Below are positions 2,083-5,925 of a DNA stretch of 64,000 nt, one piece after another. The stretch is from assembly GCA_963664535.1 (NCBI GenBank), contig OY761465.1:2063879-2127878 (forward strand), in the 5' to 3' direction. Position 1 is the stretch's first letter; each line of letters starts with the position of its first letter. Below the pieces are notes generated by a model, which was not told where the DNA came from, ran no database searches, and was given only the letters and a program-made list of their open reading frames with translations. Made by a program: the position numbers and the translations under genes. Origin of the DNA: Candidatus Binatia bacterium. Its GTDB lineage: Bacteria; Desulfobacterota; Binatia; UBA9968; JAJDTQ01.

Positions 2083-2116
2083 AAAGAGGGCGGCCGGCTG
2101 GCCGCCCTCTTTTTTT
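2083..2116 (+). terminator. Rho-independent terminator
   Basis: AAAGAGGGCGGCC-ggct-GGCCGCCCTCTTT 13-bp stem followed by a T run; a second 10-bp hairpin lies at 2041-2068. Confidence 0.8.
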
Positions 2117-2132
2117 GTCCTCCGAACGCCCC

Positions 2133-2308
2133 CCTTCCGTCATTCCCGCGAAAGCGGGAATCCAGGGGCGGCGGTGGGGTGCCCAGACCGATGAACCCCG
2201 CCCCATCTGGATTCCCGCTTTCGCGGGAATGACGGGAAGGGCAGCACCGGGAAAGACGGAAGGGCGGCACCGGGAATGACGGAAGGAGGGCACTGGACTT
2301 TTGAAGAG
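2133..2308. repeat. CGTC-type REP doublet with tandem tail; left arm of a ~176-bp inverted repeat
   Basis: CGTCATTCCCGCGAAAGCGGGAATCC, ~47-bp spacer, inverted copy, then GGGAA(T/A)GACGG half-units; reverse complement matches 4882-5059. Confidence 0.9.
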
Positions 2309-2406
2309 ATCCGGTGGTAGTGGGAGTTAGTCGGGGCGGCCGGTGGTCAATGGACCGCGCCCGCGGATTGTCGTCTACCAAATCTCCATCACAGGAGCGA
2401 ACTGCC

Positions 2407-3741
2407 ATGTTGGCGAATCTCATCAGGAACGCTCATGCGGCTGGTACTGCCTTGTTGATGGTAGCAGCGGCAAGCGTACTCTGGACCCCTGCGCATGCGG
2501 ACACTGCCGAGCGCATATGGACCGACGGTCTCATGGAGATTGGAACCTGCGGTACGACTAACGAAACCTTTTCAGCGGGTGCGCGCTGTTTCCTCGGCAG
2601 TAGCCTCAATCGTCTGCTCAACGAAGGAACCCGCTTGGCCAGCGACTACGGAAAGTCGGCGTTCGGACAGAATTTTCGGCTGGTTGGAAATCTGACCTAT
2701 TCTCCGATTCCTGGTCAAACCGGGCTCTTCGGTGATCTTGACGCTGTCATTCCGTTTGCTGGCGGCGGATACGGGACTGGATTGCAAGGGTCGGGCCCTG
2801 CGCTTTTCTTGCAGCAGGGCATCACCCGCTGGCGGGACAGTACCAGCTCTCTCCACAACGACCTGCGGCACGGGCTAGTCTATCGTTTTCGGACTTCGGG
2901 CGAGTCGGGCGCCGACATCCTGGGCGTCGCGGTGTTCCACTTGACCAACGTCGAGCAGCGGCACGAAGTGTTGGCGCATTCGATCGATTACATGGGCCGT
3001 TGGGGGACCGCCTCGCTTCGCTATTTCAGCCCGACTACCGACTGGCGCGCAACCGGATCCGGACAGATGGAACGCGCACTTGAAGGGATGGAGTTGGCGG
3101 CGGGTGTCGACGTCACCTCGACCTTTCGATTGAACACGACCGGCCATCGCTGGAAATCCGAAGACGGTTCTGATCAATGGACCCAGGGCGTGCGGTTGGA
3201 TGTCGGCTGGCGACCGCATCCGTGGATGCTCCTGAGCGCGGGCTACGACCGCATGAGGGAAGGCGAGGATACCGTATCGTTTCTTGCCGGGCTCAGGATT
3301 CCGCTTGGAAGCCAGTCGGAACCTCCGCGATGGGAAGGGCTTGGCTTGGCAGCCGGCGGTTCCGCGCCAAGTACGACGGACTTGTGGCGCCCCACGGAAG
3401 GCATCGGCCAGATACGCGTAGCCACACGTACGTCGCCGGAAAGCCTCGTCAACAACGCGAAGGTTCGTTTCCTGCAAGACACGGTGAGCAGCGGCGGCAC
3501 GGTGCAGCTTGAAGTCGTGCTTCCCGCTGCGGCGCCGCGGGACATCCGTGTCTCGGTGCGACTTGTTCCAGGGAGCGGCGGTGACCCCGCGGTTCCCGGT
3601 GAGGATTTCGTCGATGAGCCCGTGGAGACAACGATTGCGAAGGGCGCCAAGACGGGGCGTGTATTCGTGCGGCTCCTTCGCAATCCGGATATGCAAGAAA
3701 GTCGAAGTCTTGGAGCTACGGTCTCCGCCGTCTCGTCGTGA
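2407..3741 (+). CDS. Inverse autotransporter (invasin/intimin-type) beta-barrel protein with one C-terminal Calx-beta-like domain
   Basis: Start moved to ATG 2407 (AGGAG upstream, signal peptide ending AHA); amphipathic strands (LFGDLDAVIPF, LFLQQGITRW, GLVYRF, SLRYFSP, ERALEGMEL); tail resembles Calx-beta (AVPGEDF..V..TIAKGAKTGRV.V.LL). Confidence 0.6.
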   Translation: MLANLIRNAHAAGTALLMVAAASVLWTPAHADTAERIWTDGLMEIGTCGTTNETFSAGARCFLGSSLNRLLNEGTRLASDYGKSAFGQNFRLVGNLTYSPIPGQTGLFGDLDAVIPFAGGGYGTGLQGSGPALFLQQGITRWRDSTSSLHNDLRHGLVYRFRTSGESGADILGVAVFHLTNVEQRHEVLAHSIDYMGRWGTASLRYFSPTTDWRATGSGQMERALEGMELAAGVDVTSTFRLNTTGHRWKSEDGSDQWTQGVRLDVGWRPHPWMLLSAGYDRMREGEDTVSFLAGLRIPLGSQSEPPRWEGLGLAAGGSAPSTTDLWRPTEGIGQIRVATRTSPESLVNNAKVRFLQDTVSSGGTVQLEVVLPAAAPRDIRVSVRLVPGSGGDPAVPGEDFVDEPVETTIAKGAKTGRVFVRLLRNPDMQESRSLGATVSAVSS

Positions 3742-3805
3742 GTTCTTCGCCGTACATCACGAATCCGAATATCGGATCAAGTTGAATCCGCATCGGAGTG
3801 GACCC

Positions 3806-4789
3806 ATGTCGCGAAATCAATCTGTAAGGTTGGCGTCCTTGATGGCGGCATTTTGCGCCATCGCCGGATTGACTGCTTGCGGCGGAGGTGGTGGTGACAA
3901 TGCTACAAGCCGGAGTGGTCCCGGCGATGAGGTAGTGATCACGCCGCCGAGCGGCGCTCCGGACATGACGGTTGGGACACCTGCGGTCAGCGACAGCAGT
4001 CCGGATGCGGGTGCGTCGTTCACGCTTCGCGCGACGGTACGCAACGGGGGCGACGGCGGGTCGGCTGCGACGACGCTGCGCTACTACCGCTCCTCGGATG
4101 CGACGATATCCGCGTCGGACACGGCGGTGGGCACGGACGCGGTGAGTGCGCTTTCGGCTTCGGGCACGAGCGCGCAGTCGATCAGTCTGCCAGCGCCGTC
4201 GAGTGCCGGGACGTACTACTACGGCGCCTGCGTGGACACGGTGTCCGGAGAGTCCGATACGCGCAACAACTGCTCCGGTGGCGTGCGCGTCAACGTGAGC
4301 CGTAGTGGTGGCACGGGAGGAACGGGTGGCGCGGCGGCGACATCGGGCACGGCGGGCCCGACGAGCACGAGAGCCTCTTATTGCAATTCGGGCAATTCCC
4401 GCCACGGCGCGATCGTGCACAGTTGGCGGGGACAGTTCTGCGAGGACGGTTATAGCTGGTGTTACGCGTACAATTTTCCTGACCTCAATTCGGCCATATC
4501 TGGTGCGGAATCCGCGTGCCAAAGTGCCGGTTTGGCCTATAGGGGGTTGTTCTGGGTATTCACTCGCTGCGGAGCGCTGGCCTATGGCAAATCGGGTCCG
4601 AGGTGTGGCCTACGTCGTGGTAAAGGAGCTACAAGGTCCGCGGCGGAACAGGACGCCCTCTCGAAGTGTCGAGCAGATTTTACCGAGTGCGAGATTGCCG
4701 GCTATACTCCTAGCGAGGCTACGCCTCAGACCGACGAGTCGGAAAACATTGACTTTTTGAGTCAAGATCGGATGAATCAAGGATTCTAG
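3806..4789 (+). CDS. Lipoprotein with CARDB (Ig-like) domain and Cys-rich DUF4189-like C-terminus
   Basis: Start moved to ATG 3806; lipobox LTA-C GGGGG; PDMTV...FTLRATVRN.G...YYYGACVD..SGESDTRNNCS is CARDB-like; HGAIVH...C...CGALAYG...AEQDALSKC is DUF4189-like. Confidence 0.65.
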   Translation: MSRNQSVRLASLMAAFCAIAGLTACGGGGGDNATSRSGPGDEVVITPPSGAPDMTVGTPAVSDSSPDAGASFTLRATVRNGGDGGSAATTLRYYRSSDATISASDTAVGTDAVSALSASGTSAQSISLPAPSSAGTYYYGACVDTVSGESDTRNNCSGGVRVNVSRSGGTGGTGGAAATSGTAGPTSTRASYCNSGNSRHGAIVHSWRGQFCEDGYSWCYAYNFPDLNSAISGAESACQSAGLAYRGLFWVFTRCGALAYGKSGPRCGLRRGKGATRSAAEQDALSKCRADFTECEIAGYTPSEATPQTDESENIDFLSQDRMNQGF

Positions 4790-4881
4790 TGCCAGTTCGA
4801 GCGCCGACGCGCCGCCTCTTGCCGAGGCGCAGTCCGGCAGCAGCATCACGGATTCCCCGCCCGGCGCCTTGAACCCCAGGA

Positions 4882-5078
4882 CTCTTCAAAAGTCCGCTGC
4901 CCTCCTTCCGTCATTCCTGGTGCCCCCCTTCCCGTCATTCCCGGTGCTGCCCTTCCCGTCATTCCCGCGAAAGCGGGAATCCAGATGGGGCGGGGTTCAT
5001 CGGTCTGGGCGCCCCACCGCCGCCCCTGGATTCCCGCTTTCGCGGGAATGACGGGAAGGGCAGCACCAGGAATGACGG
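4882..5078. repeat. CGTC-type REP doublet with tails; right arm of the inverted repeat
   Basis: Reverse complement of 2133-2308, including the doublet spacer (one mismatch) and the inner end CTCTTCAAAAGTCC. Confidence 0.9.
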
Positions 5079-5201: not shown

Positions 5202-5684
5202 TCAAGGCGCGGCCGCCTTGGCCGCGCCCACCTGGACGATGCGGCGCTTGTCGACGCCGGCGACGCCCACGTACTTGAACATCCTGGCGTCCAGCTCACG
5301 GGCCTGGAAGCCCTGGACCACCACGCTCTTGCTGCCGTCCAGCAGCGCCGCGAAGGGCGCCGCCTGGCTCTTGCCTGCCGGGTTGGTGGGGAACCGGAAG
5401 CTCGTGCCCGGGACGTTGGTGAACTCGATGCGGCCCTTCTCGTCGCTGATCCAGAACTCCGAGATGGCCGATCCCGCGGCCACCTTGGTCAACGCCGCGT
5501 TGATGTCGTCGTTGCTCATGCCCGCCTTGAGCGCGGCGGCAATGAAATGGGCCGTGAGCATGGCTTGCCCCACCATGTGCCGCGAAACCGCATCGTCCGC
5601 CGCCCGCGCCCTGTCCGCTGTCAACACGCCGCCCAATACCAGACAAAGCCCCAGGGCCGCCACTGTCGTCAAGGTCCGTTTCAT
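5202..5684 (-). CDS. Secreted stand-alone Cache-like sensor-domain protein
   Basis: Start moved to MKRTL (5684, AAGGAG upstream); signal peptide; EFWISDEKG...Q..ELD..MFKYVGVAG.D..RIVQVG resembles Cache domains of chemoreceptors. Confidence 0.5.
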   Translation of the reverse strand: MKRTLTTVAALGLCLVLGGVLTADRARAADDAVSRHMVGQAMLTAHFIAAALKAGMSNDDINAALTKVAAGSAISEFWISDEKGRIEFTNVPGTSFRFPTNPAGKSQAAPFAALLDGSKSVVVQGFQARELDARMFKYVGVAGVDKRRIVQVGAAKAAAP

Positions 5685-5707
5685 GGTGCTCTCCTTTCGT
5701 CGCATGC

Positions 5708-5865
5708 CGTCATTCCCGCCCCCCCTCCTGTCACTCCCCGCCCCCCCTCCTGTCACTCCCCGCCCCCTCCCGTCATTCCCGCGGAAGCGGGAATCCCGGC
5801 GGGGCGGCGGAACAACGCCGTGCCCCGTCCTCCCCGCCCTGGATTCCCGCTTCCGCGGGAATGAC
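5708..5865. repeat. CGTC-type REP doublet with three ~21-bp half-unit repeats
   Basis: CGTCATTCCCGCGGAAGCGGGAATCC...GGATTCCCGCTTCCGCGGGAATGACG preceded by (C/T)GTCA(T/C)TCCC units. Confidence 0.9.
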
Positions 5866-5925
5866 GGGAGGGGGCGGGGAGTGACGATACGTCGCGCCGC
5901 AGCAGGACCCGGAGGGCCCTGCCCC

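Follow-up and report, generated by a model that had tools for sequence, protein, structure and literature searches.

Inverted REPIN copies on either side of a foreign-looking surface-protein operon in a Candidatus Binatia bacterium

When two near-identical copies of a repeat lie in opposite orientation around a small operon of foreign character, do they move or flip the genes between them, or have they settled beside these genes as they might beside any others? The question is raised by a locus of a Candidatus Binatia bacterium, found near the start of the window, the whole stretch of 64,000 nucleotides that was analysed (contig OY761465.1, positions 2,063,879 to 2,127,878). A sequence-only reading of this DNA had described a surface-protein cassette between inverted repeats, and had taken it for a REP-bounded composite mobile unit or an invertible segment. 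The description has stood up in that the arms are REP doublets, the cargo is adhesin-type and foreign-looking and the REP core has the form of the Neisseria dRS3 repeat; the mechanism was supported by none of the tests that we ran. The arms are probably ordinary REPIN copies beside a horizontally acquired operon, and serve neither as the ends of a transposon nor for programmed inversion. We found no sign that the operon is moved or flipped by them, and as it stands the case is a routine one of genome-resident hairpin repeats beside imported DNA.

Anatomy of the arms

The inverted repeat is real, its two copies (window 2131-2308 and 4882-5060) being ~95% reverse-complementary. A repeat search returned it in two overlapping parts, one of 137 nt at 95% (2131-2267 / 4924-5060) and a continuation of 51 nt at 92% (2258-2308 / 4882-4932), and a MAFFT alignment of the arms gave a single unbroken match of ~178 nt with 6 substitutions and 1 indel. 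By blastn, arm against arm, the identity is 94.2% over 189 nt. No further degenerate inverted-repeat extension was found by alignment outside the arms.

Each arm consists of a REP, a 45-nt spacer, an inverted REP and then half-unit tails (Table 1), which confirms that the arms are built from REP doublets; the REP core reads ATTCCC-GCGAAAGC-GGGAAT. Each arm, taken as single-stranded DNA, forms a long hairpin; for the left arm the folding energy is -64.7 kcal/mol (z = -8.5). This is the organization of a REPIN, a REP doublet that folds to a hairpin and exists in hundreds of extragenic copies, in families with a dominant master type (Bertels & Rainey 2011, PMC3116915; PMC3337134). REPINs are non-autonomous and are normally propagated by a single-copy Y1 transposase of the RAYT type.

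The two arms also have much in common. Their spacers are near-identical, as had been noticed, with 1 mismatch in 45 nt (MAFFT), their doublets are 98.9% identical and are mutual best matches, and both carry an unusual tail of three half-units that places the terminal motif 61-62 nt from the doublet rather than the usual 14 nt. The motif-bearing ends of both arms face inward and bracket precisely the foreign operon. We hypothesize that the arms are siblings, two recent copies of one ordinary REPIN; they occupy the intergenic gaps on either side of an imported barrel and CARDB/DUF4189 operon. The near-palindromic build of REPINs and the opposite orientation of these two account for the inverted symmetry.

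The operon and the 157-aa gene converge, with the right arm between their 3' ends, and no terminator-like site was predicted after 4789; its hairpin is probably the 3'-end structure for both of these transcripts. A promoter donated by an arm was considered and rejected, as neither prediction nor inspection of the sequence gave a convincing sigma-70 match.

Table 1. Positions in the window of the arms, their parts and the genes around them
Feature	Position	Strand	Remarks
Lipoprotein gene, 587 aa	260..2023	+	ORF with lipobox; outside the inverted repeat, within the segment differing from relatives
Rho-independent terminator of the 587-aa lipoprotein gene	2083..2112	+	13-bp stem then T-run
Left arm, REPIN	2131..2308	.	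single-stranded DNA folding and repeat anatomy
Left arm, REP	2139-2163		
Left arm, spacer	2164-2208		
Left arm, inverted REP	2209-2233		
Left arm, tail	2235-2294		three half-units, GGAAGGGCAGCACCGGGAATGAC type
Left arm, terminal motif	2295-2308		GGACTTTTGAAGAG
Block shared with foreign genomes	2368..4299	+	blastn
Inverse-autotransporter-like outer-membrane barrel, 444 aa	2407..3741	+	short C-terminal domain; GC3 0.67
Lipoprotein, 327 aa	3806..4789	+	CARDB domain then DUF4189 domain
Right arm, same REPIN inverted	4882..5078	.	
Right arm, terminal motif at inner end	4882-4895		CTCTTCAAAAGTCC
Right arm, three half-units	4896-4957		
Right arm, REP	4958-4982		
Right arm, spacer	4983-5027		
Right arm, inverted REP	5028-5052		
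Right arm, outer end	5054-5078		one extra half-unit
Conserved 157-aa gene	5202..5675	-	right anchor of the variable locus; GC3 0.905

The enclosed operon and the locus that holds it

The arms enclose exactly two ORFs, and these are indeed A/T-richer than their surroundings, with a GC of 0.618 against 0.655 for the genome and a GC3 of 0.67 against 0.85-0.94 in the neighbouring genes. The barrel protein matches PF11924 (IAT_beta) with E = 0.0018 and 18.3 bits, and many of its homologues at 42-54% identity have a precomputed match to the same family; a PDB sequence search with the barrel protein returned no match. It would thus be related to the barrels of the inverse autotransporters (intimin/invasin), from which it differs in that its score lies under the Pfam cut-off and that it has almost no passenger domain. 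In the 327-aa lipoprotein, Pfam finds CARDB (7.5e-11) and DUF4189 (1.7e-9). The order of the two genes, first the barrel and then an Ig-like (CARDB) protein that is secreted or lipidated, recalls the ZirTS-type two-partner arrangement, and the pairing is kept in L017, an 8.18-Mb ENA genome. Unlike in that arrangement, the partner gene here differs between genomes: L017 encodes four CARDB repeats, a second foreign genome (L018) a MORN protein, and the present one CARDB plus DUF4189.

Sequence comparison indicates that the two-gene surface-protein operon is horizontally acquired. By blastn its DNA is 86% identical to L017 over 2368-4299 and 84% identical to L018 over 2368-3664, although lepA is only 66% identical between L017 and this genome (G000). 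Core genes have a GC3 of 0.9 in this genome and in L017 alike, whereas the cargo stands at 0.67 in the former and 0.65 in the latter. Homologues of the cargo within the genus reach at most 56% protein identity, and the sole paralogue of the barrel in this genome is 37% identical and has no matching partner. The foreign homology begins ~40 nt before the ATG, 60 nt inward of the inner end of the left arm. It takes in the CARDB part of the lipoprotein; the DUF4189 part (4300-4789, GC3 0.60) is absent from the homology with L017.

Does the operon travel with its arms? No REP flanks were found around homologous modules in L017 and L018 or around more distant homologues at seven same-genus loci (of which 1.5-kb flanks were covered) or at nine JGI metagenome loci (the REP-free loci are L017, L018, L026-L032 and L043-L051). 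Because copies with 84-86% DNA identity occur in two unrelated metagenomic genomes without REP flanks, the module travels without the arms. This bears directly on the idea of a composite mobile unit, in which the REPINs would serve as ends and a RAYT or other transposase would move the whole 2.9-kb unit. Near-identical copies of a mobile-type repeat do bracket foreign cargo, and the genome does contain a homologue of the Y1 HUH transposases. However, the unit is single-copy in the genome, with nothing closer to a second copy than the barrel paralogue, and its outer flanks, ending in TCCTCCGAACGC on the left and beginning with ATGCGGGAGTCA on the right, share no direct repeat, so that there is no target-site duplication. 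None of the homologous modules elsewhere has such ends, the junction of left arm and cargo has no match in metagenome contigs, and the arm spacer was not found in the genomes of other species or in metagenome contigs; a 20-mer from it gave just 10 chance matches, in unrelated taxa, among contigs representing one genome per species. In addition, the conserved terminal motifs point inward, not outward. We consider a composite unit highly improbable.

A functional invertible segment, in which recombination between the arms flips the operon and thereby varies the expression of surface proteins, is similarly far from what the locus suggests. The cargo is of the surface-protein kind and the inverted arms, with 178 nt at ~95% identity, are long enough for RecA-dependent inversion, yet the conserved 5' region of the operon and its start codon lie wholly inside the arms, so that inversion would leave promoter and gene together and expression unswitched. 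A search for outward-facing promoters gave none, the ORFs between -4 kb and +10 kb include no site-specific recombinase, and the divergence of the arm tails (92%) argues against frequent exchange. The mobility gene nearest the cassette is an rve-type IS 4.6 kb upstream. On the preferred reading the arms could still permit an occasional RecA-dependent flip, which would have no regulatory consequence; a functional switch, the other mechanism that had been put forward, is as improbable as the composite unit.

A comparison with relatives, which are different species of the genus and not strains, shows that the operon sits in a locus carrying different surface-protein genes in different species. 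Such genes differ between conserved anchors in G000, G007 and G017. The left anchor is an S8 peptidase gene and the replaced segment runs from about window -114 to 5200; because the anchor lies so far out, this segment exceeds the arm-bounded unit. In other words, the indel boundary is not at the arms, and the 587-aa lipoprotein gene is part of the difference. That gene has a GC3 of 0.77 and no Pfam match in its product, its homologues in the genus are at most 49% identical and sited at other loci, and a 57% paralogue lies at G000:2146208-2147977. Its terminator stops ~18 nt short of the left arm. On the right, the 157-aa gene shows 82-93% DNA identity in same-genus genomes, homology with G017 ends at about window 5200, and in both G007 and G017 a 289-aa outer-membrane-protein gene directly adjoins the 157-aa gene. 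A REP element lies at the far side of the insert in G017. Exact-protein look-ups for four proteins, namely the glyoxalase, the 157-aa protein and the two that the cargo encodes, found no same-species contigs on record.

Such an arrangement is reminiscent of the minimal mobile elements of Neisseria, reportedly described by Saunders and Snyder. Passages of PMC3898611 and PMC1538595 mention these elements. As in Neisseria, different genomes carry different cassettes between conserved flanks, here the S8 peptidase gene and the 157-aa gene, and the cassette has no internal mobility gene. The Neisseria elements involve transformation and homologous recombination, whereas the likeness here is one of gene content between species.

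The REPIN population and the pairing of the arms

A striking inverted pair in one window can stop looking unique after a whole-genome search. This genome contains ~275 REP cores and 94 inverted doublets with a spacing of 70-76 nt, in which spacers of many families (45-53 nt) separate ATTCCCGCGAAAGCGGGAAT cores. Spacer families have up to ~25 near-identical copies each, and at least 10 REPIN copies are 100% identical over 77 nt. The inner end of the arms, GGACTTTTGAAGAG, had been singled out as special and is not, since it occurs 24 times exactly and 42 times with up to 2 mismatches; it adjoins 24 of the 94 doublets and is one-sided at 23 doublets. Likewise, the statement that every other doublet has its own spacer holds inside the window but fails genome-wide, where the arm spacer recurs at two distant loci. 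These two further members of the arm subfamily, 0.9 and 1.1 Mb from the arms, are a third full copy (genome 1168413-1168554, 92%) and a cut-down copy (939816-939904, 97-99% over 87-89 nt). The REP occurs in every sampled genome of the genus but one (27 of 28), with copy numbers of 1-666, which is consistent with REPINs as residents of the genus, separate from the travelling gene module.

The proximity of the arms and their precise bracketing of a foreign operon stand against reading them as ordinary residents, as does a third subfamily copy that also adjoins a lipoprotein gene of low GC3. For a 3-copy subfamily with two members 2.8 kb apart, p is ~0.004 before correction; with the full set of 94 doublets taken into account it rises to roughly 0.1. 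In the whole REPIN population there are 746 pairs that are at least 88% identical, of which ~1.0 is expected within 3 kb and 2 are observed. Random placement would seldom bring two of 3-4 members to within 2.8 kb of each other, so that either a local process or a tie to the cassette is required. We propose that one arm may have given rise to the other, through copying of the REPIN over a short range or through recombination.

Two more general patterns were considered for the population and rejected. Similar REPINs do not generally cluster, as the number of pairs within 30 kb is 12 where 10.4 would be expected, and inverted REPIN pairs do not generally enclose foreign cargo, as two other close and inverted same-family pairs (177447/185664 and 2264457/2269481) enclose normal genes of high GC3.

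The population resembles known REPIN/RAYT systems in its inverted REPs with a short spacer that form a hairpin, in its hundreds of extragenic copies, sorted into sequence families with a dominant master type, and in the presence of a single-copy, vertically inherited Y1 (IS200-like) transposase homologue. This candidate RAYT, the one Y1_Tnp gene in the genome, is single-copy in 24 of 28 genus genomes. Unlike in the known systems, it is a 339-aa protein with a DnaA_C-like helix-turn-helix tail and is not directly bracketed by REPs; other genes separate it from the nearest REPINs, which are ~1.3 kb away on the upstream side and 2.6 kb away on the downstream side. Many doublets here also differ in carrying half-unit tails and a one-sided 14-nt motif. 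Across the genus, REP abundance and the transposase do not match fully: REPs occur in G010 and G023 without a Y1 homologue, and they number in the hundreds in G001 and G041 despite an internal stop in the Y1 gene. REP abundance thus does not track an intact Y1 gene, and by these genome comparisons the link between transposase and REPs is not clean, which counts against the resident-REPIN reading.

The Neisseria parallel and insertion into REPs

In Neisseria, NIMEs are defined by 20-bp dRS3 units of the form ATTCCC-N8-GGGAAT that flank diverse spacers of 50-150 bp (PMC1797815). The REP core has this form, as the sequence-only reading had recognised, and the likeness extends to the many spacer (RS-like) families, to the adjoining variable surface-protein genes and to an element of the IS110/Piv type that uses the repeat as an insertion site. 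The present organism differs in being of high GC and in having mostly discrete doublets, not long arrays. The likeness to dRS3 is one of the form of the core and may be convergent.

This parallel raises the possibility that REPINs promoted the integration or exchange of the foreign operon at the variable locus and that the paired arms are the scar of that event. Bentley et al. proposed such a role for the arrays that flank surface genes in Neisseria (PMC1797815), and the different surface-protein genes between the same anchors in three genomes, the REP at the far side of the G017 insert, an IS110-family element within a REP of this genome and the non-random nearness of the arms would all fit it. 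On the other hand, the donor-type copies of the module lack REPs as partners for recombination, the indel boundary lies outside the arms and takes in the 587-aa gene, the closest IS110 copy is >600 kb away, and a simple double crossover would not leave arms that are inverted rather than direct. We regard such a scar as unlikely, whether REPs recombined with one another by homology or were the substrate of a recombinase of the IS110/Piv type. A broader proposal would have REPINs with dRS3-like cores act, in a lineage remote from Neisseria, as landing pads or recombination handles that capture foreign surface-protein operons and later allow their flip or exchange, the sibling arms being the footprint of capture by REP-directed recombination (IS110/Piv-type or RAYT) and not of chance colonisation; this is very unlikely. 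If the arms do take part in capture, inversion or exchange, the long-standing and unproven NIME hypothesis would extend from Neisseria to another lineage.

On the preferred reading, with the arms as ordinary REPINs beside an imported operon, the locus still yields two by-products that may be useful. One is a REPIN population that is well defined, with a core of the dRS3 form, a candidate Y1 transposase and, inserted in a REP, an IS110 element. The other is a barrel-plus-lipoprotein module that keeps 86% DNA identity between distantly related genomes and has swappable partner domains.

Insertion of IS110-family elements into REP sequences is known from IS621 in E. coli and from ISPpu9 and ISPpu10 in Pseudomonas. 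The present genome offers a similar case, in which the insertion is unrelated to the cassette and >600 kb from it. REPs serve as integration targets here too, because the IS110-family element, of 1.19 kb (G000:2701320-2702512), is inserted ~6 nt inside a REP that belongs to the dominant REPIN family.

Inverted arms and their REPIN subfamily

The sequence-only reading had described a cassette of two A/T-richer genes enclosed by an inverted repeat, and this observation is correct. A repeat search recovers the arms as two paired segments, and pairwise alignment joins them into a single unbroken match of ~178 nt with 6 substitutions and 1 indel, in which the 45-nt spacer differs at 1 position, the one mismatch that had been reported; blastn gives 94.2% over 189 nt. 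Two ORFs, a barrel gene and a lipoprotein gene, lie between the arms as claimed, and the cassette is indeed lower in G+C than the genome (0.618 vs 0.655), with a GC3 of 0.67 against 0.85-0.94 in neighbouring genes.

Coordinates of features (bare numbers, window; G000:C1, source genome contig; L017 and L018, foreign metagenomic loci matching the cargo)
Feature	Position	Remarks
587-aa lipoprotein gene	260-2023	outside the arms
Terminator of upstream gene	2083-2112
Arm segments, first pair	2131-2267 / 4924-5060	137 nt, 95%
Arm segments, second pair	2258-2308 / 4882-4932	51 nt, 92%
Barrel gene	2407-3741	weak IAT_beta match, 18.3 bits, under Pfam cut-off
Lipoprotein gene	3806-4789	CARDB + DUF4189 domains
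157-aa gene	5202-5675
Second REPIN	5698-5870	between 157-aa and glyoxalase genes
Tandem half-units	5715-5736 + 5737-5758	perfect, 22 nt
Arm spacer, third full copy	G000:C1:1168413-1168554	92%
Third copy with adjoining gene	G000:C1:1168413-1170744
Arm spacer, truncated copy	G000:C1:939816-939904	97-99% over 87-89 nt
Paralogue of 587-aa lipoprotein	G000:C1:2146208-2147977	57%
Barrel gene with partner	2368-4789; L017:6961-11061; L018:3748-6746
Microsatellite	G000:C1:565556-565870; L017:6483-6615
rve-type IS copies	G000:C1:2059745-2061410 (window -4133 to -2468); 3609424-3611082; 4070600-4072265	99.8% identical
IS110-family copies	G000:C1:2701313-2702589; 3149970-3151196; 3506544-3507822	1.19 kb, 99-99.9% identical
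Extra stretch, dominant REPIN family	G000:C1:455992-456053; 917647-917708; 2269425-2269486	56-62 nt, 100% identical

The source genome (G000; a single contig of 4.31 Mb, 65.5% G+C) carries 275 copies of the 25-nt REP GTCATTCCCGCGAAAGCGGGAATCC by fuzzy search, among them 94 head-to-head doublets at 70-76 nt spacing, which is the REPIN architecture (PMC3116915). Doublet spacers group into families, one of ~25 near-identical members and another of ~8. In single-stranded form the DNA of the left arm makes a long hairpin, with a folding energy of -64.7 kcal/mol (z = -8.5). Two features taken to be private to the arms are not: the supposedly non-REP inner end, GGACTTTTGAAGAG, is found 24 times exactly and 42 times at <=2 mismatches genome-wide, flanking 23 doublets, each on a single side and mostly at 14 nt, and the arm spacer recurs in one full and one truncated copy elsewhere. 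The arms are nevertheless mutual best matches (98.9% across the doublet of 95 nt) and share an uncommon tail of three half-units, which sets the motif 61-62 nt away from the doublet; their subfamily was not found in the other species searched. On these comparisons the arms are recent siblings inside a small subfamily.

For two copies of a three-member subfamily to lie 2.8 kb apart has p ~0.004, which becomes of the order of 0.1 once all 94 doublets are allowed for. Among all REPINs of the genome, 746 pairs of doublets reach 88% identity or more; by chance ~1.0 of these pairs should fall within 3 kb and 10.4 within 30 kb, and the observed counts are 2 and 12. The pairing of the arms is suggestive of a local process and is not compelling as evidence for a dedicated structure.

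The third full copy of the arm subfamily adjoins a gene for a 707-aa lipoprotein whose C-terminal barrel is autotransporter-like; the GC3 of this gene, 0.72, is atypical. Within the window, the second REPIN is preceded by the tandem half-units, which run into the 5' end of the 157-aa ORF if the longest version of that ORF is taken.

Imported cargo at a variable locus

Positions 2368-4299 are 86% identical in DNA to L017, a locus of an 8.18-Mb ENA genome whose lepA is only 66% identical to that of G000, and positions 2368-3664 are 84% identical to the metagenomic contig L018. The best protein identity of the barrel within the genus is 56%, and its GC3 (0.67 in G000, 0.65 in L017) lies below the ~0.9 of core genes in both genomes. 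These values show the operon to be foreign to both hosts and to have spread by horizontal transfer. Homology of the cargo begins ~40 nt upstream of the start codon, leaving 60 nt between it and the inner end of the left arm, and REPs of the arm type are absent from L017 and L018, from 9 JGI metagenome loci whose homologues are 54-72% identical, and from 7 same-genus loci (1.5-kb flanks covered). The cargo module thus moves without the arms.

The gene downstream of the barrel is a modular partner: it carries four CARDB repeats in L017 and CARDB plus DUF4189 in G000, and in L018 it codes for a MORN protein. The barrel gene is a conserved carrier and its partner is swappable: that of L017 has 885 aa and CARDB repeats 86% identical, that of L018 has 516 aa, and in G000 the shared DNA breaks off at 4299. 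An identical pentanucleotide microsatellite, with 100% matches sliding by 5-nt steps, is common to the two unrelated genomes; in L017 it lies between an IS and the barrel gene, and could be a slippage tract.

On the right, the 157-aa, glyoxalase and membrane-protein genes are 82-93% DNA-identical across the genus. In two relatives (G007 and G017) a 289-aa outer-membrane-protein gene stands directly beside the 157-aa gene, where REPIN and cassette are both absent, and homology with G017 ends at ~5200. An S8 peptidase gene anchors the left side; its homologue in G000 stops 114 nt short of the window. The variable segment, from ~-114 to 5200, takes in the 587-aa lipoprotein gene, which has no orthologue in the genus; because it exceeds the arm-bounded unit, the boundary between presence and absence does not fall at the arms. 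The locus is a variable surface-protein site between conserved anchors, a pattern similar to that of the neisserial "minimal mobile element". The term occurs in PMC3898611. A role for the REPINs in capture or exchange of the cassette, similar to that proposed for neisserial NIME arrays, would fit a local process behind the pairing, but is unlikely given the armless homologues and the wider variable segment.

The gene of the 587-aa lipoprotein has a paralogue, also among REPINs, and over 70 nt of their 5' part the two are 95.7% identical in DNA.

Transposon, switch or settlement

The arms had also been proposed to bound a composite mobile unit or an invertible segment, and neither proposal found support. 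Paired inverted ends around foreign cargo are what a true composite transposon would present, but no direct repeat was found at the arm outer ends, G000 holds no second copy of the unit, and arm-type ends were not found in other species, metagenome contigs or homologous loci, which leaves this explanation very improbable. A functional invertible switch, to which the inverted arms would lend themselves, is equally hard to credit. No recombinase was found inside or beside the unit, and the nearest mobility gene is a three-copy 1.66-kb rve-type IS, 4.6 kb upstream. The conserved leader and start codon of the operon lie within the arms and no promoter pointing outward was detected, so that inversion would leave the promoter-gene link intact; the arm tails have diverged to 92%, which speaks against frequent exchange. 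The only two further inverted pairs of same-family REPINs that lie close together in G000 enclose ordinary high-GC3 genes.

We propose as most likely, with fair confidence, that two sibling REPINs settled in the intergenic gaps on both sides of an imported operon. The left REPIN lies just past the upstream gene's terminator; the right one separates the 3' ends of two convergent genes, a usual place for REPs, and no other terminator is predicted there. The inverted symmetry is incidental, and the arms may allow rare RecA-dependent inversion without regulatory effect. Two known kinds of element, REPINs and a variable surface-protein locus, meet here in a new instance.

The rve-type IS codes for a 419-aa DDE protein; one of its copies closely precedes the S8 peptidase gene at this locus, and in L017 a homologue of 68% identity is the immediate neighbour of the barrel gene.

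Candidate enzymes and REP insertion sites

A search for the HUH or IS110 enzymes suggested by the sequence-only reading did recover them in the genome (one Y1_Tnp gene and three IS110-family copies); the IS110-family copies lie >600 kb from the cassette. The IS200-like Y1_Tnp gene, a candidate RAYT for this REP, is single in G000, codes for 339 aa with a weak DnaA_C-like tail, and is not directly bracketed by REPs; its homologue is single-copy in 24 of 28 genus genomes, and RAYTs are typically single-copy. Genomes of the genus (G000-G043) carry anywhere from 0 to 666 REPs, a number that does not follow the presence of an intact Y1_Tnp gene. Homologues with internal stops occur in G014 (0 REPs), G024 (4), G001 (509) and G041 (666), and G010 lacks the gene, yet has 226 REPs.

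One IS110-family copy (2701320-2702512) has inserted ~6 nt inside a REP that belongs to the dominant REPIN family, and another lies immediately next to a REPIN; REPs in G000 thus serve as insertion sites for an IS110-type element. The dRS3 repeat of Neisseria is a parallel (PMC1797815). To its left the copy inside the REP is flanked by sequence identical to the 62 nt found ahead of three other REPINs, and to its right by sequence identical to REPIN interior. Members of the dominant family share their extra 56-62 nt opposite the terminal-motif side, so the propagated unit would be ~200 bp, exceeding the doublet.
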